64,000 nt of DNA from Candidatus Yanofskybacteria bacterium RIFCSPHIGHO2_01_FULL_43_32. Its GTDB lineage: Bacteria > Patescibacteriota > Minisyncoccia > 2-02-FULL-40-12 > GWA2-44-9. Numbering within the stretch: the stretch's first letter is position 1; each line of letters starts with the position of its first letter. The translations under genes were made by a program, and so were the position numbers. This document shows positions 48,267 through 61,663 of this stretch, one piece after another. The notes beneath the pieces were generated by a model. The model had not been told where the DNA came from, did not search any database, and was given only the letters and a program-made list of their open reading frames with translations. Where the stretch lies: positions 37,751-101,750 of the forward strand of contig MGJF01000002.1 in the NCBI GenBank assembly GCA_001794125.1. Reading direction: 5' to 3'.

Positions 48267-50996
48267 ATGCCATTTTTATCTAAGATATTCGGGGACGCAA
48301 ATGCCCGTTATATTAAGTCATTACAACCCACAGTTGACCGCATAAACTTACTCGAAAAGAACTTTGAGAAACTTTCGGACACACAATTAAAGGAAAAGAC
48401 CTCTGAATTCAGACAACGGCTCAACGGCTCACCGGGTGAGCCGTTGGACGATATTTTACCTGAAGCCTTTGCCGCGGTCAGGGAGGCGTCAAAACGCACA
48501 TTGGGCCAGCGTCATTTTGATGTTCAGCTGATGGGCGGGATAGCTCTGCACCGCGGGAATATCTCTGAAATGAAAACCGGAGAAGGCAAAACATTGGTCG
48601 CCACATTGGCCGCATATTTGAACGCCATTACCGGCGCCGGTGTACATGTTGTTACCGTGAACGATTATCTGTCAAGGCGCGATGCGGTTTGGATGGGACA
48701 GATTTACAATGCTCTCGGTTTGACCACGGGCTGCATCAATCACGAAGCGAGTTATTTGTACGATTTTTCTCATACCGACAAGAGCGAAGATAAAGAACGC
48801 GACACCGAAGGAAGCTTTAAAATTGTCCATGAATTTTTAAAACCGGTCACAAGACGGGAGGCATACTTGGCCGATATTACTTACGGCACGAATAATGAAT
48901 TTGGTTTTGATTATCTCCGCGACAATATGGCATATGAAGAAGCGCAGATGGCCCAGGCCAAAGGCCACAACTTCGCAATTGTTGACGAGGTGGACTCTAT
49001 TTTAATAGACGAGGCCAGAACGCCTTTGATAATTTCCGCGCCGGTTGAGGATTCCGGGAAATTATATGAAACATTTTCAAAAATCGTCCCGCGTCTTGTA
49101 GAAAACGAGGATTATAACGTAGATGAAAAATTAAAAGCTGTTTCAATAACTGAAAAAGGAATAGAAAAAGTTGAAAAGACTTTGGGGCTTACCAATATAT
49201 ATGACGAAGGCGGTACCCGGCACGTTCACCATATGGAGCAGGCCTTGAAAGCCCAGATATTGTTTAAACGCGACCGTGATTATGTCGTGAATCCGTCAGC
49301 TGACGGAGGCGAGGTAATAATTGTGGACGAATTTACAGGGCGCATGATGCCCGGCCGGAGATGGTCCGAAGGTCTGCATCAGGCCGTTGAAGCCAAAGAA
49401 GGTGTAAAAATAGAAAAAGAATCCAAGACATTGGCGACAATTACTTTTCAGAATTATTTCCGTTTGTATAAAAAGCTTTCAGGTATGACCGGAACCGCCC
49501 AATCATCCGCTGAAGAATTTCACAAGGTATATAAATTAAATTCTTTTGTTATTCCGACAAACAAGCCGATGGTCAGAAAGGACTTGCCGGACAGAATTTA
49601 TAAAACAGAAGCCGGTAAATTCAGGGCAATTGTTAGGGAAATAAAAGAAATGCACGAAAAAGGTCAGCCGGTTCTCGTGGGTACGGTTTCAATTGAGAAG
49701 AACGAATTGTTGTCGGCGATGCTTGAAAGAGAAGGTATTTCTCATAATGTTTTGAATGCTAAACAACATGAGAAGGAAGCCGAAATGCATGCTCAAGCCG
49801 GAAGGCAGGGAGCGGTTACGGTGGCTACTAATATGGCAGGAAGAGGCGTGGATATTATTCTCGGTGGAAATCCGCCTTCGGCTGATGAAGCGAGCAAAGC
49901 TCGCGAAGGCGGCGGTTTACATGTTATCGGCACTGAACGCCATGAAGCAAGGCGGATAGACGACCAGTTAAGAGGCCGCGCCGGAAGACAGGGCGACCCC
50001 GGTTCTTCAAGATTTTTTGTTTCAGTAGAGGACGAGCTGGTTAGGATATTTGGAGGAGATAAATTAAAGAATCTTATGGACCGGCTCGGCGTGGGAGAAG
50101 ATGACGTTATAGAGAACAGGTTTGTTTCAAGCGCCATTGCCCAGGCCCAAGCCAGAATCGAAGGCCATAATTTCGATATCAGGAAATATGTTCTGGAATA
50201 CGATGATGTCATGAACAAGCACCGCGAAGCGATATACCGTTTGAGAAAAGAAATTCTGTCATCCGAAAGCGCAAAAGAGATTGTTTTAGATTATCTGCGG
50301 ATTCAAATCAGGAATTTGATAAACTTTCATACCCAAGGGCACTCGGAGTGGTCTCCTGGCCGTGCTTTAGCCGGCCGAGGAACTCTGTCGGACTATAAAT
50401 GGAATACAGAAGAAATAGGGGAATCATTGAAAGCGTTATTGCCTGTCGGCGACGAAATTAGTGCTCAATTAGTTGAAACCGCCAAGACTGGAAACAAAGA
50501 CGAATTAATCGAATTTGTTATCAAAAAATCGGAGGAATTATACGAAATAAGAGAAAAAGAAATGGGCGCGGAATCCGCCGGTTGGCGGATGCGACGCCTG
50601 GAAAAGCTTGTCTTGCTCCGTACGATTGACGAATTGTGGATTGACCATATTGAATCTATGGAATATTTGCGAGATTCGGTGCGCTTGCGGGCTTACGGCC
50701 AGAGAGACCCGTTGGTTGAATATAAGATAGAAGGACAGAATATGTATAATCAGCTGATGATGTCGGTTGGAGCTCAAACGGCTAATCTTATATTTAAAGT
50801 AAGTTTTATGGAACAACCAAAGATGGCCAATATTCAGGAGAAACGGCCGGATATTGTCGGAGATTCACATAAACATCAAGAAATAACAAACGAACCGGCG
50901 CATCGAAACACGGAATCATCGGAATCTAAACTCGGCCGCAACGATCCCTGCTGGTGCGGGTCAAAAAAGAAATATAAGAAGTGCCATGGGAAATAA
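48267..50996 (+). CDS. secA: preprotein translocase ATPase SecA
   Basis: [35 protein letters not shown] Walker [20 protein letters not shown]-terminal [15 protein letters not shown] zinc finger. Confidence 0.95.
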
Positions 50997-52005
50997 ACGA
51001 CAAATTATAGTTGCAGTATCAGGCGCGTTTGACCCGATTCATATCGGGCATATTCGGTTGATCAAAGAAGCCAAAAGATTAGGCGATAAGTTGGTGGTTA
51101 TTTTGAACAACGACAACTGGCTGTTAAATAAAAAGACCCAAGTTTTTATACACCAAAATGAACGCAAGGAGATATTGGAAGCGATTAAAGAAGTTGGCGA
51201 GGTGATTATCAGCAGTCATTCCGCAAATCCCAAAGACATGAGTGTTTCCAGAGAACTGTTTAAGATCAAGCCAGACATTTTTGTTAAAGGAGGCGATCGA
51301 AAAAGCAAGAAGGATATTCCCGAAGCCGAAGCGTGCAAAAAAATAGGATGCAGAATTGTTTTTAATATCGGCCATGGCGGAAATTTTAAATACAGCTCAT
51401 GGCTTTTGGCGAATTACATCAGGAGCTTAAACCGCATTAAACAAATTGATGTAAACAAAACCACGGCTAAAATAAGACAAGTCTTTAAGAAATCTAAAAC
51501 CCCGGTTTCTTTAAACATTAAATCGGCATTAAGCGAGATTATTTTGAACGTCATGAACCGGCGCCGGGCTTTCGGTTTGTTCGTTATTTTGGGCTGGCAC
51601 AATAAGTGGAATAATTTTACGGATGTTCCCGACAGCAGTCAGGATATTTATAAAAAACACCATGTAAATTTGAAGGACCTCATTAAAGAAGGCAAGCATT
51701 ACAAAATTGAATCTACCCTTGATTTTGACGGGGCAATTTTAATTGATAAAAACGGCAACATTTTAGATTCGGGAATTATCATTGAAGGTTTGCGGCCCAA
51801 AGTGATTGCCGATAAAATTAACCCCGGCAAATTTAAAGACCTTTCCCAGCAATTCGGGTTTAAGGGCAAGGTCCATTCGCGCCACCTATCGGCGATTGCC
51901 GCCTCATATATTTTCAAAGGAACAACGGTATTTACCGTTTCTGAAGAGAATGATTCTTTTCACATTTTCGAGAACGGTAAAATAGCTTACCAATACGGCA
52001 AATAA
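50986..52005 (+). CDS. HxGH nucleotidyltransferase (TagD/RfaE-domain-II-like cytidylyl/adenylyl-transferase) fused to a C-terminal diadenylate-cyclase (DAC)-like domain
   Basis: N-terminal [30 protein letters not shown] and [10 protein letters not shown] (TagD [28 protein letters not shown]; RfaE LVKGGDYK); C-terminal [14 protein letters not shown]...[12 protein letters not shown]...[21 protein letters not shown] parallels the DAC HDGAVII...GTRHRAALGISE...VSEETGxIS. Confidence 0.55.
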
Positions 52006-53598
52006 CTAAATACCCGGCACAAGCGTAGACCCGGTCATCTCTTTCGGTTTTTCCAGCCCGAACAGGTCAAGCACCGAAGGGGCGATATCGAGCAGTGTTC
52101 CTATCGGCTTTTCTGTGGCGAGAGATTCAAGCGACTTGCCGCTGCCGTTGGCGCCCAGAAATCTTTGAGCGACGAATACGACCGGTACCGGATGCGTGGA
52201 ATGCTGGGTGTCCTCGCCTCCGGTCATCGGATCAATTAATTCTTCGGCGTTTCCGTGGTCGGCGGTGATGACCACGGCGTTATCGGGGTCTTTAACAATC
52301 GTTTCGACTATCTGTCTGATAGAGTCGTCAAGAATCTTGAGCCCCTTTACCGTCGCTTCCGTATCTCCTGTGTGGGCAATAATATCGGCATTGGCAAAAT
52401 TTATAACGAACAATTTTTTATCCTCTTCTGCCCGCGCCAGAACTTCCCGGACAATCCCGGCGGCGGACATCTCCGGATGTTCCATGTAGTTACTGCCGGT
52501 CATCTTTCTTGATTCGACTATGACCCGTTCCTCGCCTTCGTACGGGCCTATCTTTCCGCCGTTGAAGAAGTTGGAGACATGGGCTTCTTTTTCTTTTTCG
52601 GCTATCCTGTATTGCTTCCAGTCCTGTTTGCTTATCACCTCGCCGAGAATATTGGGCGTTTCAAGCGGTTCATAGGCAACGCTAACATTAAAGTCGTCGG
52701 AGTAGCGCGTCATAGTGGCTACGAAAAGATTTTGCGGCACGTTTTTTCTTTTGAATCCGGAGAAGTCCGGAGAAACGAACGAAGATACGATCTGCTTCAT
52801 TCTGTCGTTTCGGAAATTAAAGAAAACGAGCGCGTCATTGCTTCCGATGGTTGCCACCGGCCGGACTGCATCATTTTTTGTATCCACTATCACCGCCGGC
52901 TCTATTTCGTGGTCGGAAATATTTTTTGCATAATTTTGCCGGAAATAATCTTCGGGATCGGTGACAGGGGATCCTTCGCCGTCAACCATGGCGCACCAGG
53001 CCTTTTCGGTCAGCGGCCAGTTCAGGAGCCGGTCCATTCCATATACGCGTCCGATCACGGAGGCAATGCGGCCTCCGGTATCGGCTATGACATTTTTAAC
53101 TTTTGCCAAACTGATTATACCGTCTCTCGGTCCGCTGTCCTGTCCGTCGGTTATCATGTGCACGAAAATTTCTTTGAAGTTTTCTGCGGCGGCAAAACGG
53201 AGAAGCGCGAACAGGTGGTCTTCGTGGGAGTGAATGCCGCCCGGGCTTACGCATCCGATTAAGTGGAGCTTGGATCTGTTTTTCAAGCAATGCTCGACGG
53301 CGGCTTTAAAAAACGGATGTTTGAAGAACTGGCCGCTTGCGATGTTCTGATTTATTCTCGCCCAGTCCTGAACGATAATCCGTCCGGAGCCGATGGCGGA
53401 ATGGCCGACTTCGCTGTTGCCGTATTTGCCCCAAGGAAGACCGACGATAAGTCCGGAGGATACGACGGAATACGAAGGATACCCGGCCGTAAGGCTGTTT
53501 AAATATTTCATTTCCGCAGTTGTAACGGCGTTGCCCGGTCCGGAGAGATCCAATCCGAATCCGTCTAAAATTATTAGGAATACTTTTTTGAAACTCAT
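52006..53598 (-). CDS. gpmI: 2,3-bisphosphoglycerate-independent phosphoglycerate mutase
   Basis: MSFKKVFLIILDGFGL N-terminus and full-length iPGM architecture. Confidence 0.9.
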   Translation of the reverse strand: MSFKKVFLIILDGFGLDLSGPGNAVTTAEMKYLNSLTAGYPSYSVVSSGLIVGLPWGKYGNSEVGHSAIGSGRIIVQDWARINQNIASGQFFKHPFFKAAVEHCLKNRSKLHLIGCVSPGGIHSHEDHLFALLRFAAAENFKEIFVHMITDGQDSGPRDGIISLAKVKNVIADTGGRIASVIGRVYGMDRLLNWPLTEKAWCAMVDGEGSPVTDPEDYFRQNYAKNISDHEIEPAVIVDTKNDAVRPVATIGSNDALVFFNFRNDRMKQIVSSFVSPDFSGFKRKNVPQNLFVATMTRYSDDFNVSVAYEPLETPNILGEVISKQDWKQYRIAEKEKEAHVSNFFNGGKIGPYEGEERVIVESRKMTGSNYMEHPEMSAAGIVREVLARAEEDKKLFVINFANADIIAHTGDTEATVKGLKILDDSIRQIVETIVKDPDNAVVITADHGNAEELIDPMTGGEDTQHSTHPVPVVFVAQRFLGANGSGKSLESLATEKPIGTLLDIAPSVLDLFGLEKPKEMTGSTLVPGI

Positions 53599-53804
53599 AT
53601 TATTTGTCGTTCGTGTTTATTTTAACACGCAGAGCTTTGTTTTAAAATGACCAGACGACTTGTAGTCACAGGATTTTGTTTCAAATTTCTTAATAATTCT
53701 ACATAAAGGTTCATAAAAAAGAGTAGTTTGCGGTTCTTTGGATTTGAACCGATTCTTGCGTTTTTTCAATCTCAACTTATTACTTTCAGCTTCGGTACGG
53801 AGCA

Positions 53805-53813
53805 TGGTATAAT
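53805..53813 (+). promoter_or_regulatory. extended -10 promoter element TGGTATAAT, followed by GTGAGGT RBS
   Basis: 16 nt upstream of ATG 53829. Confidence 0.45.
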
Positions 53814-53828
53814 AAAAAGTGAGGTATA

Positions 53829-56222
53829 ATGCCCAAAAACTATCAACCGAATTTTTTAAAGGAGAACGATAAAAACAAAGGCGCTCTAATTAAAAAGGCG
53901 GGCCGTTATCTTATAATTCTGTTGGCGGTTTTATCAATGCTGTCTTTTGTTGCCGTGGCCGGTTCGCTTACTCCTTCCGCTTCGCCTGCCAGCACGATGA
54001 AGACATTGCAGGAGATATACGATTCCATCGCCGGAACATTTGATTCATCTTCCATTACCGCAAGCCAGAACGGTTCTCTCATCCAGGGTTTAAAATATAT
54101 TTCCAATAATCTTTTCTGGGCCTCTTCATCCGACGATATTTACAACATCAACACGGGCAACGTCGGCATCGGGACGACTTCGCCCGATTCTGTTTTGGAA
54201 GTTGCTTCCGCATCGGCTAAATTCATCCTCCGCTCTACCGGCTCCGCCGCATCCGTTTCCATTGACTTCCAGCCTGCCGGAGGAGCGTCATCCAGCAACC
54301 AAAGCAAATTTACCATCAGAGCAGGAGGCTTGGCTTCAACTCTGGGCGAGCGTCTGGAATTTCTTAACGGCAATATGACCAGCTTGATGACCATTGCAAG
54401 CTCCGGCAATATTGGTATCGGGACAACGGCGCCCGCCTCGCTTCTTACCGTTCAGGGCCGGGGAGAATTCTATGGCACGGCTTCGGCTTCTTATCTCCTG
54501 ACCGGCAACACTCTTCAAGTAGGAGGCTATTCATCTGCCGCATACTCAAGATTCGGGATAGGCGCAACAAGTGAATCTCATTACATCGCCGGGGCAAATG
54601 ACCTTTTTGTCACCGAAGACTTTGAAGTTGATGGCTCCGTCTCATTTGCCGGACCGGCATCAATATCCAATACGCTTTATGTATCCACGCTTGGGAAAAC
54701 AGGCAACGTCGGAATCGGTGTATCAAACCCAACAGCGTTGCTGACACTCAAGTCGACCGGAGCTCTCGGCTGGGACGACAGCTCGGGAACGGCGGATGTG
54801 AAATTGGTGCGTGACGGGTCTAAGCAACTGGCAATGCGAAACGGCACAAACGACCAGCAGTTCAGCGTTTATGGTACGTATACCAGCGGTACAAACTATC
54901 GCCGTTTGCGCATAAACGTAGCTAGTACGAATGTGAATATTTATTCGGAGTCTGCAACTCAAAGCGCGGCGGATATGAACATCGGCACCTTAGGCAGTTC
55001 TGTGTTGCAGTTTGTCACCAATAGCAGCAACCGATGGCATATAGATGCGAGTGGCAACTTTGAGGCAAGTACGGATAACAGCGTGGATATCGGCGCCAAT
55101 CAAGCCAACCGTCCAAAAACCGGCTATTTTGGCACGTCGCTCGGTGTCGTTTCCGGAGGCACCCTCAATACCACTTTTGAGGTCGGGGGTACCGCATCTG
55201 TATCGGGCAATGCATTCTTTGCAAGCAATGCTTCAATATCCGGGGCGCTGGAAATTGTAACCTTGAACCCGGCGGCAGCCACTCATGTCTGCCGGGATGC
55301 CGGAAATGTTTTATCAACCTGTTCCTCGGCTGCAGAATGGGCGCCGGCTTTGCCTGATAATGATATTGAAGAAGGAGATATTGTGTCAATTGACTTTGAG
55401 ACTCCTAATCCTTATGGCGACGAGCACAGCCCGTTTGTTATCAAAAAATCATCGACTTCTTACGAAGGAGGAATAATCGGCTATGTTACCGACTCTAAAT
55501 TAGGCGGTGACGGGCCTAAATTAAACGATAATTACCGTCCGGTGGCAGTAGTGGGTTATTGGCCGGTCAAAGTCAATTTAGAAAACGGCCCCATCAAAAG
55601 GGGCGACCATATCACCTCTTCTGCTACGCCTGGTGTAGGCATGAAAGCGACAACACCGGGGATGATTGTGGGCATTGCCTTGGATGAGGCGAATAATATG
55701 CCTGACGGCGCTTCGTTTGTAAAGATAAGGATATTTACCAATCTAAGCTATTGGGCACCCAGCGTGGATTCGATTCTGGATTCTGCTTCTGTTGACCCGG
55801 CGTTTGCGCTCCAAACGACAACCGGCAGCCGCTTCACCCTTTTAATGCTTTTTGGCTTCATTCTTGAACAACTCAAGCAAGTCGGAGTCATAATCCACGA
55901 TGGTCTTGTCCAGGCCAACATTATCAAAGCCAACCAGCAATTCTGCGTCGGCAACGCCTGTGTTACGGAGGACCAATTCAAACAGCTTCTTGAAAATGCC
56001 GGACTGATGCAAACAAATTCTCCGTTACCGGAGCCGATCCCTTCGCCCTCGGCAACACCAACCCCTGAAGCTATGCCGGAAGCGACTCCAGAGGAAACTC
56101 CAACCCCGACTTCTGAACCGGCTTCGGAAGAGACGCCTGTTCCCGTCCCTGAACCCGTTTCTGAACCAACTCCCGAACCAACTCCCGAACCAACTCCAGC
56201 CCCGGATTCATCCGGCCAATAA
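53829..56222 (+). CDS. large secreted/cell-surface protein with N-terminal signal-anchor, Ser/Thr/Gly/Ala-rich beta-rich body and C-terminal Pro/Thr/Glu-rich tail
   Basis: TM ILLAVLSMLSFVAVAG then the conserved module GSLTPSASPASTMKTLQEIYD...; the C-terminus has TPEPTPEPTPAP repeats. Confidence 0.55.
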   Translation: MPKNYQPNFLKENDKNKGALIKKAGRYLIILLAVLSMLSFVAVAGSLTPSASPASTMKTLQEIYDSIAGTFDSSSITASQNGSLIQGLKYISNNLFWASSSDDIYNINTGNVGIGTTSPDSVLEVASASAKFILRSTGSAASVSIDFQPAGGASSSNQSKFTIRAGGLASTLGERLEFLNGNMTSLMTIASSGNIGIGTTAPASLLTVQGRGEFYGTASASYLLTGNTLQVGGYSSAAYSRFGIGATSESHYIAGANDLFVTEDFEVDGSVSFAGPASISNTLYVSTLGKTGNVGIGVSNPTALLTLKSTGALGWDDSSGTADVKLVRDGSKQLAMRNGTNDQQFSVYGTYTSGTNYRRLRINVASTNVNIYSESATQSAADMNIGTLGSSVLQFVTNSSNRWHIDASGNFEASTDNSVDIGANQANRPKTGYFGTSLGVVSGGTLNTTFEVGGTASVSGNAFFASNASISGALEIVTLNPAAATHVCRDAGNVLSTCSSAAEWAPALPDNDIEEGDIVSIDFETPNPYGDEHSPFVIKKSSTSYEGGIIGYVTDSKLGGDGPKLNDNYRPVAVVGYWPVKVNLENGPIKRGDHITSSATPGVGMKATTPGMIVGIALDEANNMPDGASFVKIRIFTNLSYWAPSVDSILDSASVDPAFALQTTTGSRFTLLMLFGFILEQLKQVGVIIHDGLVQANIIKANQQFCVGNACVTEDQFKQLLENAGLMQTNSPLPEPIPSPSATPTPEAMPEATPEETPTPTSEPASEETPVPVPEPVSEPTPEPTPEPTPAPDSSGQ
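56163..56198 (+). repeat. 3 x 12-bp tandem repeat (gaaccaactccc) encoding (EPTP)n
   Basis: Perfect or near-perfect tandem copies in the C-terminal tail of the surface protein. Confidence 0.8.
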
Positions 56223-56225
56223 TCC

Positions 56226-56507
56226 ATGGTTAATTTCCAAACCGGCAAAATAAAGAAAATAGGAAGAGAGGCGCTGATAATTATTATCGGCATCTTTGCC
56301 GTCATATATATAATAAGAACAGTCCAGGCCGGAAGCCTGACTCCGTCGGCGTCTCCGGCTTCAACCCTGAAAACTTTGCAGGAAGTTTATGATCCTTTGG
56401 TTGGCACATCTCACGATTCTTCTTCAGTCGTTGCAGGCCAGAATGGAGATGCCCTGCAGATAATGAAATGCATAATAAGCAAACTAAATACCGGATCGTG
56501 TCCATAG
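56226..56507 (+). CDS. short ORF encoding a second copy of the N-terminal signal-anchor/GSLTPSASPAST module (possible truncated paralog or 5' part of a frameshifted gene)
   Basis: IIIIGIFAVIYII TM then GSLTPSASPASTLKTLQEVYDP...DSSSVVAGQNG paralleling residues 35-90 of the upstream protein. Confidence 0.3.
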   Translation: MVNFQTGKIKKIGREALIIIIGIFAVIYIIRTVQAGSLTPSASPASTLKTLQEVYDPLVGTSHDSSSVVAGQNGDALQIMKCIISKLNTGSCP

Positions 56508-58306
56508 TTGCTCTTCAGCGAGCGATTCTTCTGGCGGCTGTCGCGGCGTATCTTGCGACGCCTTTTGGCGCCGGAGCCTCATCCGAAGACGGCACAATAA
56601 ATTCAACGTTTAAATATGCCTGGGGAGAAAACATCGGCTGGATAAATTTCGGTACATCCGAGGGCAATGTTCATATAACCGATTCAGGGATGACCGGCTA
56701 TGCCTGGGGAGAGAATGTCGGCTGGATATCGCTTAACTGTTCCAATACAAGTTCGTGCGGCACGGTGGACTATGGCGTTTCAAATGACAGTCACGGAAAT
56801 CTTACCGGCTATGCCTGGGGCGAGAATACAGGCTGGATATCATTTGATAATGTATTTAGCAGTGTGAATATAAGCCAGACCGGGGTGTTCAGCGCTTATG
56901 CCTGGGGCGAGAATACAGGCTGGATATCATTTAACTGTTCCAATACAAGTTCGTGCGGCACGGTGGACTATGGACTCAAGACAGATTATATCCCCAGCCC
57001 GTCAGGGGGGGGAGGATTTGGTGATCCGCCATCTCCGAGCAGTACGCCGGCTCCTTCACCGACACCAGAAGAATCTCCGACCCCAAGTCCGTCGGTCTCA
57101 CCCAGTCCGGAAATAACTCCTGAACCATCAGCAGAGCCATCCGTCACGCCGCCTCCGGCCATGCCGGAAGCTCCGCCTCCCGATCAAGCCCCTCCGGCTC
57201 CGCCTACTTCTTCCGGTCCGCCATTCATATCGGTGCCGGGAATCGGCGTCTTGCCTCAAGGAGTGCAGGATGTGATAAACCAAACAGTGTTGAATGTTGT
57301 TGAGGCTGTCCAGACAGTCACTAAAGTGACCGTAGAGGTAGCCAAGGTTGTTGCCCCGGTTGTTGAAAAATCGGCGGAACCAGTCACTCAAGTTACGACT
57401 GCCACGACGGGAGTCTCAAGCGCGGTAGCGGTTGCGCCTATGGCCAACTCGGCCAGTAACGCCGGCAATATACTTGAATTCTTACGCCAGAATCTCTGGG
57501 TGGCGGTGGGTCTTAAACGCAGAAGAAAACCATGGGGCACCGTTTATAACGGGAAAACGAAACAGCCGATACCTTTTGCTAAAGTTGAACTTTTAAACCC
57601 AAGTTCCCGTCTTTTGGAATCCCAGGTCACCGATATGAACGGGCGCTATGGTTTTTTGGTCACCCCCGAGTCCACGGAACAAAAAGTCGTTGAGATCCAA
57701 ATCCAGGCCCGTAAAGAAGAATACGTTTTCCCGGCGCAAGGCATTATTCCGCCTAACGATACGATGCTATACGGCAATGTTTATGTCGGCGGCATTGCCA
57801 AAGTTGATGTTGAAGCTCTGGCGGGTTTTGATATTCCGATGAGCAAGCTTACGCCAGACAAATTATTGGATACGGCCGTTAAAAAACCGCTTGCCAAGCT
57901 CAACAACAGCATTACGATCCTGTTAAATTTCGGTTTTTATTTGGGATTGGTCATGGCGCCTCTGTCTTATATTCTGACTCCGAGCAATTTTAATCTGGCT
58001 ATACTGGCGGGTTTCTTTGTTGTAAACATCCCCCGATTCGCCGGCTTGACTCAAAGGCAATTTGGTATGGTGGTAGATTCTTCTACAAGCGTTCCGATAC
58101 CCTTTGCCTTGATAACTCTGAACGACCGCGAAGGGAAGCGGGTCGGATTTACGGTATCCGATGAGAGGGGCCGTTATTTCCTGCTCGTGCCTAAAGGACA
58201 CTATTCAATCCTGGCTTATACGCCGGCGACAATAATTCCGACCAGGACTTTCAGTCGGGAATTTAAAACCAGAAAAGGCTGGATAAAAGAAGAGCTCCGG
58301 TTATAA
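56468..58306 (+). CDS. secreted/membrane protein with 4-5 tandem ~40-aa YAWGENxGWIxF(NCSNTSSCGTVDYG) repeats, Pro-rich linker, CarboxypepD_reg-like domains and C-terminal TM helices
   Basis: Own AxA signal-peptide-like segment (AAVAAYLATPFGAGA|SS); repeats visible in protein and DNA. Confidence 0.5.
   Translation: MHNKQTKYRIVSIVALQRAILLAAVAAYLATPFGAGASSEDGTINSTFKYAWGENIGWINFGTSEGNVHITDSGMTGYAWGENVGWISLNCSNTSSCGTVDYGVSNDSHGNLTGYAWGENTGWISFDNVFSSVNISQTGVFSAYAWGENTGWISFNCSNTSSCGTVDYGLKTDYIPSPSGGGGFGDPPSPSSTPAPSPTPEESPTPSPSVSPSPEITPEPSAEPSVTPPPAMPEAPPPDQAPPAPPTSSGPPFISVPGIGVLPQGVQDVINQTVLNVVEAVQTVTKVTVEVAKVVAPVVEKSAEPVTQVTTATTGVSSAVAVAPMANSASNAGNILEFLRQNLWVAVGLKRRRKPWGTVYNGKTKQPIPFAKVELLNPSSRLLESQVTDMNGRYGFLVTPESTEQKVVEIQIQARKEEYVFPAQGIIPPNDTMLYGNVYVGGIAKVDVEALAGFDIPMSKLTPDKLLDTAVKKPLAKLNNSITILLNFGFYLGLVMAPLSYILTPSNFNLAILAGFFVVNIPRFAGLTQRQFGMVVDSSTSVPIPFALITLNDREGKRVGFTVSDERGRYFLLVPKGHYSILAYTPATIIPTRTFSREFKTRKGWIKEELRL
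56618..56982 (+). repeat. array of degenerate ~100-bp intragenic direct repeats; two ~80-bp copies (about 56696-56776 and 56894-56982) share a long identical core (ccaatacaagttcgtgcggcacggtggactatgg)
   Basis: Direct comparison of DNA strings. Confidence 0.75.
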
Positions 58307-58350
58307 TTGGTTTGTATAATCGATAACTTTAATTTTTCAGCGCCTGAAAA

Positions 58351-58387
58351 GGCGTTTTTAATTTGACTGTTTAACTTTTTGTTGTAG
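58351..58387 (+). repeat. direct repeat copy 1 (ggcgtttttaatttgactgtttaactttttgttgtag), includes a TTGACT -35-like box
   Basis: Re-occurs at 59946-59984 with two single-T indels. Confidence 0.8.
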
Positions 58388-58482
58388 TTAAGAAAATTTT
58401 TACTTAAAATAAGTACTTGACTTGTCGTAAAATTTAGGTATTCTAAGATTCAGCAATTTACCAATTAAAACCGGAGCTGTGA

Positions 58483-59733
58483 GTGAGAAGAATCCCCATA
58501 CTTGTCTTTTTGTGTGGCTTATCTATCGCTTGCGACAGCAACAATGGTCCGAGCTTCAGCCCAACGGCGCCAAGCACGAGCATCAGCGTCGAGGACCCGG
58601 CAACTTTACAGACCGTAACCAAGACCGGTCCGGCAAGCGTGAAACCGCTGAACGCGCGCGAAATCTGCGGCAACCCCAACGACTGGGAGCCGGATGATGC
58701 AGCGCTTCAGACCTGCTTGGACAAGGGGGGGAATATTGATCTTGAACCGGGTTTGCCGGGGTATATCGTGAACGGCCTCAATGGAGATGTAAACCGGGGG
58801 CTTCATCTGATCCGTTCGGGAACAGCTCTCGGGTCTTCCGGAGGAGCGAACAGAGCGCGTATCATTGCGGGAAGGGACTTGTTTGCCATAATCCTTCAGA
58901 CACAGGGCAGTGTAAGCAACTTCAGCATTCGGAATATTTCCTTTGACGGCATGGTTGATGAGATGGCCGAAGACGGCCCATACCGGCGAAGGCGTGGTGA
59001 GTGCATTGACGGCAGGGCGCCGGGAAATATTTTTCTTCAAGGCAATGGTTTCCAGTTCAAGGATAACGAATCCCAGCACGCAATGTGCGGAAGCGGCCTT
59101 GGTTTGATGGGTAGCGGCTATGATGTTCAGAATAATTACGTCTCTTACAACGGGCGGGATAAGAATTCCGGAGCGCCGGGAGCGCCATGGTCAGACGGGA
59201 TGACTGTTCTTTCCTGCGAACGCGGCTATATTGCACACAACGTTCTGGTGGATAATACGGATATTGACCTGGTGCTTGGCGGCGGGCGGGGATGCATTGT
59301 GGAGTTAAATACCATCGCCCACTTCGGCAATTATGCTTTCGCCGGGCTGAGCATCGGAAATTTCTCCGGCGGCGACCACACCGGTTCGGAATTCCGTGGA
59401 AATACGGTCTATTCCGGCGTTCCGGACAGATTGTCCATGGGAATTCTTGTCGGAAGCCATCCATGGTCAACCCAGGTCTGGGTTCACAATGCCGGCAGAG
59501 TTGTCGGAAACACTTCCTACGGTAACGTGCTCAACTTGATAGTTGAAGGCGTCCGGGGAGGAGAGGTAGTCGGCAACAATATTTATAATCCCCAGGGAAG
59601 CGATAGCGGATGCGGCAAACACAGCATGAATTATGTCGTTAACCCTGCCCATGTAACGAACACGAAACTGCAGGATGGCTGGACGCCACTCCAATTCGAT
59701 GAATGGGTTTGTGTTCCGGTAGCTGGCGAATAG
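58483..59733 (+). CDS. lipoprotein with right-handed parallel beta-helix (pectate-lyase-fold) repeats, GTG start
   Basis: Lipobox LVFLCGLSIAC; NVLVDNTDIDLVLGGGRGCIVELNTIAHFGNYAFAGLSIGNF...GNTVYSG beta-helix-like repeats; markedly higher GC than neighbours. Confidence 0.5.
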   Translation: MRRIPILVFLCGLSIACDSNNGPSFSPTAPSTSISVEDPATLQTVTKTGPASVKPLNAREICGNPNDWEPDDAALQTCLDKGGNIDLEPGLPGYIVNGLNGDVNRGLHLIRSGTALGSSGGANRARIIAGRDLFAIILQTQGSVSNFSIRNISFDGMVDEMAEDGPYRRRRGECIDGRAPGNIFLQGNGFQFKDNESQHAMCGSGLGLMGSGYDVQNNYVSYNGRDKNSGAPGAPWSDGMTVLSCERGYIAHNVLVDNTDIDLVLGGGRGCIVELNTIAHFGNYAFAGLSIGNFSGGDHTGSEFRGNTVYSGVPDRLSMGILVGSHPWSTQVWVHNAGRVVGNTSYGNVLNLIVEGVRGGEVVGNNIYNPQGSDSGCGKHSMNYVVNPAHVTNTKLQDGWTPLQFDEWVCVPVAGE

Positions 59734-59945
59734 CCAGCTTTTTAATTAGCTTTTGGAAATACTTATTGTATGTTTAAAAACATGAAAAAAATACTTTTGT
59801 TCTTAGCTATGTGAGAGACAGTTCAAGATAAGAATATTAGAATAGGAAACGAGGTTATCAAGGAAGTTATGAAATGGGCTCCGGTCTGCGGTTGGCCCAA
59901 GATTTACAGAGACATCAATTCTTGAACTGAAACGAAACGTCTAAG

Positions 59946-59984
59946 GGCGTTTTTTAATTTGACTGTTTAACTTTTTTGTTGTAG
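59946..59984 (+). repeat. direct repeat copy 2 (ggcgttttttaatttgactgtttaacttttttgttgtag)
   Basis: See copy 1; precedes pepA. Confidence 0.8.
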
Positions 59985-60019
59985 ATTTTGACAATCTCGA
60001 TCTTTGAAAAAGGGATACC

Positions 60020-61663
60020 ATGCCTCGTCAGTCGCCGGAAATTCAGTTCTTTTTTCAGTCGTTTTCTGCGATTGAATATCAGTCTGATACGCCCGTTCTT
60101 TGCTATGTTTTTGAAAACCAATCTGATATGATCTTGGCAAATACATTTCCTGAAGTTGAAAAAGCGCGGGAAATGCTGGACAAAGCCCGAGATCGCGGAA
60201 ATGAAACAGTTTCCATTTTTGGAGGATTGCGTGGCGACAAGATTATTCCTTTGGGGATTGTTTATATTAGACAGCCCTGGCGCCGCCGTGGACAATCTGC
60301 GTGGAATATAGACAGTATCAATTTTTACCGCGAGCTGTGGGAAAGAACAATGTTGGCGGCCAATCGTGTCCGCAGCGCCGGCTATACGGATTTTGTACTT
60401 GTTCTTCCGAGCAAGTTTCGTCCGGAAAATATCAGAAATGACCGATGCCAAGAACAGCGTCTCGGGAAGTTCATTCGCTCGGTTACAGAGGCGGTAATCT
60501 ATGCCAATCACTCGCTGGACGAACTTATTCAAGACGCTCCGCCATTGATCAAAAATGTAACGCTAACTTATTTCGGTGAAGAAGACCGCGAAGTCAATAA
60601 CTTTTTTCAGAGATCCATCGAAGAAGGCCAAGCAATCGGAGAAGAAACGGGCCGTGTTAGACAACTGACTGTTTTACCGTCAAACCTCAAGCACCCTCTT
60701 CAATTTGTGAATCGCGCAACAGGGGCAATTCCCAAGCCGAGAACTTCTAAAAGCAAGGCTTGGAGGCTGCTCAAAGGCCATCATTTCTCTTCAAGGACGA
60801 AGATTTCTTATCTCTACGGAAAAGAGGGAATTGAAAAATTCGGTTTTGGTCTTATCCATGCTGTAAGCAAGGGCAGTATGTACAATCCGATATTCCTGAA
60901 GGTCCATTATCGGCCATTGACCGACCGCCAAAAACCGGTAAAGAAAATTGTTCTTGTAGGCAAGGGGATTGTTTTTGACACAGGCGGCACTAATGCAAAA
61001 GATGATTCAAATCTTGAACGTATGAATTACGATATGGCTGGCGCCGCAATTGCGCTAAGAACCGTGAAGCTTGCGGATAAAATGGCTCTACCCGTTGAAT
61101 TGATCGCACTCGTGCCGATCGCCGAAAACGCCAACGGACCGGAAGCGGTACGGCCCAAGGATGTGGTCAAGGCCTATAACGGCAAAACAGTGGAGATTGT
61201 TAACACCGATGCGGAAGGCCGCCTTGTTTTGGCTGATGCTATTGCTTATGCCGAAAAACACCTGAAGGCTGATTGTACTATCACTATTGGGACGCTTGGC
61301 GATATGAGCGATATGGGACCTGATCTTATTAAAGTCGGGTTTGGCAACGACAAACTTCGCAAAAAGATAATTCGGGCTGAAAATATCTCGACGGAAAAAG
61401 TCATTCTTCTGCCAAGCATTGACCATTTAAACGAGGTCTACAATGAACATCTTGGCGACGTAAGCGACTTGTTAAGTTGTCCAGAATGGGATTATTTTCA
61501 TTCTGCGCCGTTTGTTTTTTTGTATAATTTCTTTAACGCAGAGAGACCGGAATGGATATTTGTTGACCCCAGTGCCTTGTTTGAAACTGATGCCGATAGC
61601 TATGGAGCAGGTCCCGGCTTTGGTGTCAAATTCATCTGGTATATTTTGAAACAGTATGTATAG
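60020..61663 (+). CDS. pepA: leucyl aminopeptidase (M17 family)
   Basis: GKGIVFDTGGTNAKDD, NTDAEGRLVLADAIAYA M17 signature. Confidence 0.9.
   Translation: MPRQSPEIQFFFQSFSAIEYQSDTPVLCYVFENQSDMILANTFPEVEKAREMLDKARDRGNETVSIFGGLRGDKIIPLGIVYIRQPWRRRGQSAWNIDSINFYRELWERTMLAANRVRSAGYTDFVLVLPSKFRPENIRNDRCQEQRLGKFIRSVTEAVIYANHSLDELIQDAPPLIKNVTLTYFGEEDREVNNFFQRSIEEGQAIGEETGRVRQLTVLPSNLKHPLQFVNRATGAIPKPRTSKSKAWRLLKGHHFSSRTKISYLYGKEGIEKFGFGLIHAVSKGSMYNPIFLKVHYRPLTDRQKPVKKIVLVGKGIVFDTGGTNAKDDSNLERMNYDMAGAAIALRTVKLADKMALPVELIALVPIAENANGPEAVRPKDVVKAYNGKTVEIVNTDAEGRLVLADAIAYAEKHLKADCTITIGTLGDMSDMGPDLIKVGFGNDKLRKKIIRAENISTEKVILLPSIDHLNEVYNEHLGDVSDLLSCPEWDYFHSAPFVFLYNFFNAERPEWIFVDPSALFETDADSYGAGPGFGVKFIWYILKQYV

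Follow-up and report, generated by a model that had tools for sequence, protein, structure and literature searches.

The window analysed here, a 64,000-nucleotide stretch of contig MGJF01000002.1 of Candidatus Yanofskybacteria bacterium RIFCSPHIGHO2_01_FULL_43_32, contains three adjacent genes on the forward strand, the open reading frames (ORFs) 53829, 56226 and 56468, numbered by their first nucleotide. ORF 53829 encodes a tail-fibre-like protein and ORF 56226 a small secreted protein, and the two share, directly after the predicted signal peptide, a module of ~55 residues termed the tag. ORF 56468 encodes a membrane protein with a repeat domain termed GW4. The three genes are proposed to form a unit in which the tag, left at the N-terminus by cleavage of the signal peptide, would dock on the GW4 protein as its receptor. 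Function is read here from gene context and fold, and the statement as a whole, docking included, is given a probability of about 50%. The strongest new result, and the most informative feature of the locus, is the linkage of the tag genes to the repeat protein ORF 56468. This linkage was missed by the initial annotation of the region, which gave the coordinates and the out-of-frame overlap of the three ORFs correctly.

The products of ORF 53829 (797 residues) and ORF 56226 (93 residues) align with 43 identities over 80 positions (54%; E = 6e-19, BLASTP), whereas only 123 of 225 positions (55%) agree in the underlying DNA, with a saturated proportion of synonymous differences (pS 0.83) and a nonsynonymous proportion (pN) of 0.33. 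The initial annotation had described a common N-terminal module conserved at the protein level in spite of diverged DNA, and these values bear it out. The identical stretch GSLTPSASPAST comes after the hydrophobic segment in both proteins. The predicted mature N-terminus reads G-S-L-T-P-S-A-S-P-A-S-T-M-x-T-L-x-E-I-Y-D-x-[I/L]-A, with GSLTPSASPASTLKTLQEVYDPLVG as the tag peptide stretch, and continues in the subfamily present here as G-x-x-DSS-x-x-A-x-x-G-x-x-x-Q-x-x-K-[Y/C]-I. The tag thus described comprises a Pro/Ser-rich part, whose TPSASPAST segment is rich in Ser, Thr and Pro, a predicted short helix (MxTLQEIYDxL) and a second predicted helix. No model of Pfam or NCBIfam matches it. A motif scan and a profile hidden Markov model (HMM), applied to all ORFs of the window, locate the tag in ORF 53829 and ORF 56226 only. 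A third, degenerate copy was considered in ORF 58483, where GPSFSPTAPSTS...TLQTV looks similar by eye, and was ruled out by a profile E value of 8.

A profile search of 1.84 billion representative proteins at a cut-off of E ≤ 1e-3 retrieved 787 clusters with the tag, 140 of them at E ≤ 1e-10, and the match starts within the first ~100 residues in nearly all of the 787. The earlier proposal of a candidate N-terminal sorting or anchoring module therefore gains ground: the module is widespread, nearly always N-terminal and outside the Pfam and NCBIfam models, and the resemblance is far from one of chance. The matched proteins range from 59 to 3051 residues, and those listed are mainly either small (~75-130 residues) or long (several hundred to 3051). 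Passenger domains of the long proteins include GxxGIGT tail-fibre repeats, Peptidase_S74, LVIVD propeller repeats, Ig-like domains and Lcl_C (DUF1566), and many long members end in Pro/Thr/Glu-rich tails like that of ORF 53829. The Lcl_C types usually carry two tandem copies of a GSLxPxxxPxxTMxTLxxIY unit. Matches in genomes come from Yanofsky-, Brenner-, Taylor-, Nomura- and Peregrinibacteria, Parcubacteria and bins labelled Saccharibacteria. Judged from these sequences, the tag is a modular N-terminal element fused to many unrelated passengers in candidate phyla radiation (CPR)/Patescibacteria and some other phyla. Describing the two window copies as an old duplication undersells a module common to hundreds of unrelated passengers.

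Two further observations concern the passengers and the module itself. In locus L034 (1-2849), the gene of an Lcl_C protein precedes two bAvd genes in a cassette resembling a diversity-generating retroelement (DGR), with a GW4 gene 4 kb downstream of it; Lcl_C proteins with the tag may be hypervariable binders of ligands, mounted by the same tag/GW4 system. In the long proteins P0124, P0145, P0151, P0152 and P0153, which have no N-terminal tag, 4-8 tandem copies of the second half of the module (FDSSAxxANxNGSxxExLxxI) are found internally, and this hints at a reusable structural repeat.

Examination of the gene neighbourhoods reveals that tag genes and GW4 genes travel together. In the window and in loci L004, L005, L006, L007, L008, L024 and L027, the gene immediately downstream of the small tag gene encodes a GW4 protein, and the same holds for 7 of 8 metagenome cases. 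The complete triad of tag-bearing fibre, small protein and GW4 protein recurs in L005, L006, L007, L024, L038, L039 and L040. When genome loci were retrieved by the tag alone, a GW4 gene was present in 12 of 19, Lcl_C-type loci among them. In a metagenome sample of 61 dereplicated tag loci, in which GW4 was called by HMM at E ≤ 1e-5, 33 contain GW4; among loci that reach 5 kb the figure is 19 of 25, and among those that reach 8 kb it is 13 of 17. The orientation is uniform, with GW4 on the same strand as the tag gene in all 33 cases, within 150 nt in 24 and downstream in 27. These metagenome loci hold 34 GW4 genes in 348 kb, compared with one in the 64-kb window, where it stands beside the tag genes.

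The reciprocal test started from four GW4 proteins picked blind to their neighbours. A tag gene lies next door in three, and the fourth is cut by the locus edge. The neighbours are a Peregrinibacteria protein with two tag units and without the usual ...VRCVR end, a fibre, and, from Planctomycetota, a beta-helix protein whose sequence begins ...AGNLEPSAAPAPTMKTLDEV; in the Planctomycetota locus L033, the tag-bearing Beta_helix protein precedes GW4. Taken together, the tag and GW4 families, both of them under selection, are strongly co-located and co-oriented, and their genes are very probably linked in function. We also note tandem arrays of two or three short tag genes (~140-230 residues) followed by one GW4 gene, as in L062 (984-4561) and also in L058, L061, L063, L067 and L074, an arrangement that suggests several cargoes per receptor.

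Homologues of the GW4 repeat domain number 2992 at E ≤ 1e-3 and come from Patescibacteria, Peregrinibacteria and Planctomycetota. The family alignment (A4) is defined by the pattern [YF]AW[GS]ENxGW[IL], present four times after the signal peptide, with invariant Gly and Trp and with Cys loops, and ORF 56468 conforms to it. The invariant positions are mostly the Gly and Trp of the repeats, together with one Glu, one Asn and one Cys. AlphaFold2 (AF2), run with 56 sequences, returns a confident all-beta model with a predicted local distance difference test (pLDDT) score of 87.9 and a predicted template-modelling (pTM) score of 0.73. Foldseek finds no match for this model in the PDB (best E 0.67), a PDB sequence search gives no usable match for GW4, and neither Pfam nor NCBIfam has a model that matches the domain. 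The nearest folds are small ligand-binding barrels of the 8-stranded up-and-down kind, namely hemophilin, the C-terminal barrel of HpuA, fHbp, the lobes of TbpB, YceI and avidins.

GW4 always lies after a signal peptide and before an anchor, which consists of transmembrane helices with CarboxypepD_reg or, in some homologues, of PG_binding_1; some GW4 proteins are short and soluble-looking, with no obvious anchor (P0164 and P0246, 166-220 residues). In ORF 56468, Pfam PF13620 matches two stretches (E 4.7e-13), and the predicted transmembrane helices fall at residues 481-528 (57908-58051). The membrane module of ORF 56468 is found as a standalone protein of 326 residues in L030 (951-1931), two genes upstream of a GW4 gene, in the order transmembrane helix, RKR-WGTV, CarboxypepD_reg, more transmembrane helices and second CarboxypepD_reg. 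Because the membrane module stands alone there, barrel and anchor look like separable modules.

The ChW repeats (PF07538) resemble GW4 in being Gly-Trp-centred repeats of secreted proteins, and some GW4 homologues carry precomputed PF07538 matches, graded faint where a strength is shown (L033). In contrast, hmmscan gives no PF07538 match for ORF 56468, and the best match in a relative, the L024 protein, reaches 10 bits (E 0.81) against a gathering threshold of 22 bits. Kinship of GW4 with ChW is not supported.

The small ORF 56226 was at first considered either an independent small anchor protein or a frameshift remnant (a pseudogene, a programmed shift or an assembly error) running into ORF 56468. 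The geometry, a 40-nt out-of-frame overlap, is all that speaks for a frameshift, and the comparative evidence refutes it. A word-indexed search yields four homologues of 89-93 residues, and the profile search adds dozens more standalone homologues of 74-127 residues. An annotated protein of 'Candidatus Yanofskybacteria bacterium RIFCSPLOWO2_02_FUL...' has exactly the sequence of the 93-residue product, which places the window in a CPR genome. In alignment A3, which defines the family of small secreted proteins with a tag and a CxnC loop, ORF 56226 can be aligned over its full length with 46 other proteins. The family features are a signal peptide, AGSLTP... and the C-terminal KCIIxKxxGGxCP; C82 and C92 are invariant in 47 of 47 members, and A35, G36, L38, P40 and G74 are conserved in at least 90%. 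Small ORFs of 82-98 residues stop at the same place (...KCIIxKxxGGxCP) in at least 14 independent loci. Comparison of ORF 56226 with its orthologues in L004, L005, L006 and L008 gives ratios of nonsynonymous to synonymous substitution rates (dN/dS) of 0.09-0.23, with dS saturated; by this sequence measure, ORF 56226 is under purifying selection up to its stop codon.

The downstream gene leads to the same conclusion. ORF 56468 has a signal peptide of its own, with equivalents in L004, L005, L006 and L007, and a fusion would bury this peptide. The overlap measures 40 nt in L004 and 10 nt in both L005 and L024, and in L007 there is none, the GW4 gene starting 7 nt past the stop of the small gene. 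The 40-nt overlap is ordinary gene packing and probably reflects translational coupling. A frameshift origin of ORF 56226 is therefore highly implausible given the homologues, the cysteines, the dN/dS values and the separate GW4 genes. The alternative of an independent small protein, now placed in a family of at least 47 standalone members, prevails: ORF 56226 can be regarded with great confidence as a real, separate gene.

The AF2 model of the small protein contains a signal helix (6-33) and short helices at 51-59 and 76-89. The low confidence outside the signal peptide is what would be expected if the small protein folds on a partner or on assembly, and the invariant CxnC loop in the sequence suggests a disulfide-stabilised end. 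Proteins P0037, P0047 and P0131 are variants of the small family, with 193-201 residues, in which the CxnC loop is followed by an additional Cys-rich extension.

The initial annotation regarded the N-terminal segment as a signal-anchor. Its hydrophobic character is confirmed, but a permanent anchor is the less likely reading. Across 140 family members, the residue at position -1, ahead of the invariant Gly, is Ala in 124, and position -3 is A, V, T or S in 128. The uncharged run N-terminal to the invariant Gly has a median length of 17 residues and is preceded by Lys or Arg in 95%. Because the canonical signal-peptidase-I pattern, A-x-A followed by G, holds across the family, the likeliest reading of the segment is a Sec signal peptide that signal peptidase I removes, rather than a permanent signal-anchor. 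Other classes were considered. A type IV pilin or class III signal peptide is rejected, as the hydrophobic segment lies before the conserved Gly and there is no FTLIE-like motif. A lipoprotein is rejected, as the +1 residue is the invariant Gly and not a lipobox Cys. The ends of the fibre (...PAPDSSGQ) and of the small protein (...GSCP) carry no LPXTG sortase signal, and a Tat reading of the N-terminus was likewise dismissed from the sequence.

In the proposed mechanism, Sec export and cleavage by signal peptidase I after A-x-A would expose the tag at the new N-terminus of both the fibre and the small protein. The exposed tag would then dock non-covalently on the GW4 barrel, the N-terminal domain of the membrane protein, which would face outwards. 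The C-terminal part of the GW4 protein would serve as the envelope anchor, through transmembrane helices here and through a peptidoglycan-binding domain in other members, and docking would display fibres and lectin-like passengers on the cell surface. The 58-residue tag-only protein, made together with GW4, may act as an adaptor, a cap or a placeholder for the docking site. The Pro-rich segment of the tag and the Trp/Tyr-rich repeats would suit peptide recognition of the polyproline type. On the strength of gene linkage and fold, the chance that the tag physically docks on GW4 is put at even or slightly below.

The same features admit two other explanations. According to the first, the tag is a structural oligomerisation element, for example a trimeric fibre base built of short helices, and GW4 is merely a co-component that does not bind it. 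The passengers are typically trimeric (tail-fibre-like, Peptidase_S74 and Lcl_C), the tag unit is tandemly duplicated in Lcl_C proteins, and the internal repeats of the second half of the module occur in proteins that lack a signal peptide; the two short helices predicted by AF2, at low monomer confidence, are also what would be expected of an element that folds only on assembly. Oligomerisation, however, leaves unexplained the position right after the cleavage site in nearly all 787 matches, the conserved tag-only protein of 58 residues and the specific same-strand adjacency of GW4 across phyla, and beta-helix and beta-propeller (LVIVD) passengers carry the tag too. This explanation appears unlikely.

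According to the second, GW4 is a processing, export or assembly factor (a chaperone, an usher or a modifying enzyme), or the tag is a modification site, for instance for O-glycosylation, so that GW4 is not a permanent anchor. The genomic linkage would be identical to that expected from docking, the short anchor-less GW4 proteins would fit a processing role, and the Ser/Thr/Pro-rich TPSASPAST segment would suit modification. Nevertheless, the invariant residues of GW4 read as repeat or structural positions, and no catalytic motif can be recognised among them; binding barrels rather than enzymes are its nearest folds; many GW4 proteins bear envelope anchors; and no glycosyltransferase is consistently adjacent in the loci inspected. 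A processing or modification role is judged improbable.

Several observations weigh against docking of a cleaved tag on a GW4 receptor. The tandem GSLxPxxxPxxTMxTLxxIY units of many Lcl_C proteins fit a structural or oligomerisation element equally well. Signal-peptide cleavage is predicted from a sequence pattern, and tag-GW4 binding from gene linkage and fold. Model confidence for the mature part of the small protein is low in the AF2 monomer (block pLDDT 51-72). In L026 and L037 the small gene has no adjacent GW4 gene, and about a quarter of the long tag loci lack one within 5-8 kb. The fibre carries a Pro-rich tail at its C-terminus as well, so that either end may face the cell.

The fibre protein itself matches the tail-fibre families 18345 and 9942 of PHROG over residues 105-474 (E 2.1e-8 and 2.5e-7), and GxxGIGT repeats are visible in its translation. 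A PDB sequence search gives weak matches to the Bdellovibrio fibre proteins 8ojn and 8ond (E 0.007 and 0.016). The Pfam scan finds no Peptidase_S74 domain (PF13884) in ORF 53829; the domain is found in the tag-bearing relatives P0011, P0028 and P0033. A prophage or viral origin was considered: there are no phage genes among the neighbours, and both tag and GW4 are absent from IMG/VR by pattern and tblastn searches. Since nothing phage-like surrounds the gene and both modules are absent from IMG/VR, ORF 53829 is a cellular fibre-like surface protein.

The features of the locus are collected in Table 1. The start of ORF 56226 lies 3 nt past the stop of the fibre gene. The tight spacing, the promoter-like -10 element with its GAGG and the terminator-like hairpin suggest, as read from the sequence, that the three ORFs form one operon.

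Table 1. Features of the tag/GW4 locus in window coordinates.
Feature	Position	Strand	Basis
Promoter-like extended -10, TGgTATAAT, 16 nt 5' of ATG	53805-53813	+	Consensus match only, read from sequence
GAGG Shine-Dalgarno before the ORF 53829 ATG	53821-53824	+	Read from sequence
Gene for secreted tail-fibre-like protein, 797 aa, N-terminal tag	53829-56222	+	ORF; PHROG and weak PDB sequence matches
Predicted signal peptide of fibre protein, aa 1-44, ...SFVAVA before GS	53829-53960	+	Hydrophobic segment aa 23-50; family A-x-A before G pattern (cleavage predicted)
Tag module of fibre protein, aa 45-100, GSLTPSASPASTMKTLQEIYDSIAGTFDSSSITASQNGSLIQGLKYISNNL...	53961-54128	+	BLASTP, motif, profile
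Pro/Thr/Glu-rich C-terminal tail of fibre protein, aa 730-797, without LPXTG motif or transmembrane anchor	56016-56219	+	Translation
Gene for small secreted protein, 93 aa: signal peptide, tag, C-terminal CX9C loop	56226-56507	+	Homologues, 47-member alignment, dN/dS
Predicted signal peptide of small protein, aa 1-35, ...RTVQA before GS	56226-56330	+	AF2 helix 6-33; hydropathy; -3/-1 rule
Predicted mature small protein, 58 aa: extended Pro/Ser segment, two short helices, Cys82 (56469-56471), Cys92 (56499-56501)	56331-56504	+	Alignment; AF2
Overlap of small gene end and GW4 gene start, 40 nt, different frames	56468-56507	+	ORF coordinates
Gene for GW4 membrane protein, 612 aa	56468-58306	+	ORF; 2992 N-terminal-domain homologues; adjoins tag genes across loci
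Predicted signal peptide of GW4 protein, aa 1-37, MHNKQTKYRIVSIVALQRAILLAAVAAYLATPFGAGA before SS	56468-56578	+	Translation, hydropathy
GW4 domain: four WGENxGWI repeats at aa 52, 80, 117 and 146; predicted 8-stranded beta-barrel	56591-56995	+	
Gly/Pro/Ser-rich stalk, aa 177-255	56996-57232	+	Translation
Membrane module: CarboxypepD_reg-like domain, two predicted transmembrane helices, second CarboxypepD_reg-like domain (aa 533-600)	57530-58267	+	Pfam, hydropathy
Terminator-like hairpin and T-run, 33 nt past the GW4 stop	58339-58366	+	Pattern match only

The neighbouring genes are of the housekeeping type: SecA at 48267, phosphoglycerate mutase (iPGM) at 52006 on the minus strand and an M17-type aminopeptidase at 60020. 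Just past the terminator-like hairpin, ORF 58483-59733 (+) encodes 416 residues with a lipobox-like N-terminus, LCGLSIAC, and a weak Beta_helix match (E 0.17). GC content is 0.48-0.51 over 52000-60000, a stretch that takes in iPGM, the three-gene unit and ORF 58483, compared with 0.36-0.44 across most of the window; Pro/Ala/Gly-rich coding may lie behind part of this rise. On the minus strand, an ORF of 185 residues (55748-56305) lies opposite the Pro-rich tail of ORF 53829 and the first part of ORF 56226. Its Gly/Ser/Val-rich translation mirrors the Pro/Thr/Glu codons of the other strand, so this ORF is almost certainly spurious.

Literature searches by motif string led only to unrelated papers, and searches by topic returned no description of the tag or of GW4; as far as the databases searched and the searchable literature show, the gene pair of tag and barrel is undescribed. 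CPR/Patescibacteria account for a large share of bacterial diversity. All cultivated members are reported to live attached to other microbes (PMC12206443). To our knowledge, type IV pili apart, little has been established about the way in which CPR cells hold their adhesins.

The tag picks out hundreds of likely surface proteins among unannotated 'hypothetical' genes, and the GW4 barrel offers a specific and testable candidate for what holds them in place. The 58-residue protein is a candidate minimal natural ligand, convenient for binding and structural studies, and both tag and GW4 domain can be modelled as families from the alignments made here. We tentatively advance a wider idea, with odds well under even: the GSLTPS tag and GW4 would be a two-part display system that mounts interchangeable adhesins (tail-fibre-like proteins, DGR-diversified Lcl_C lectins and beta-helix proteins) in CPR/Patescibacteria and some Planctomycetota and Peregrinibacteria, the Pro-rich, short-helix tag plugging into an aromatic-rich anchored barrel and the 58-residue protein regulating or capping the docking site. 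If true, the tag/GW4 pair would be an organising principle of the host-attachment apparatus in episymbiotic ultra-small bacteria.

Comparison with known systems places the locus among several partial likenesses. Lcl_C/DUF1566 proteins (PF07603), which are DGR targets in CPR, overlap with it directly, as many carry one or two tag units and lie beside GW4 genes. The window proteins, however, have no Lcl_C domain, and the tag is a separate module outside the Pfam models. Cohesin-dockerin and other non-covalent display modules of monoderms (SLH, CWB2, LysM and GW modules) share the logic of a short module on varied secreted proteins with an anchored receptor encoded nearby. There is no sequence or fold relationship to cohesin-dockerin: dockerin binds calcium and lies at the C-terminus, and cohesin has a 9-stranded jelly-roll fold, whereas the tag would occupy an N-terminus left by processing, with an 8-stranded repeat barrel as its candidate receptor. 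The analogy is one of function only.

By analogy, the mosaic adhesive trimer (MAT) fibre adhesins of Bdellovibrio bacteriovorus are the nearest counterpart of this locus. They are likewise cell-encoded and phage-tail-fibre-like, with a conserved module directly after the signal peptide, exchangeable C-terminal domains, and subtypes with and without S74. Their N-terminal domain is presumed to keep the fibre on the cell by binding a surface element as yet unidentified (PMC10769870). It differs from the tag in being beta-rich and ~130 residues long, with no detectable similarity to the Pro/Ser-rich module with two short helices described here. No partner is known for MAT, whereas the candidate partner GW4 is genomically linked to the tag, and the tag extends in range to non-fibre passengers and to a tag-only small protein. 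The locus thereby bears, for CPR, on the question that is open for the analogous Bdellovibrio fibres, namely the target of the conserved N-terminal module.

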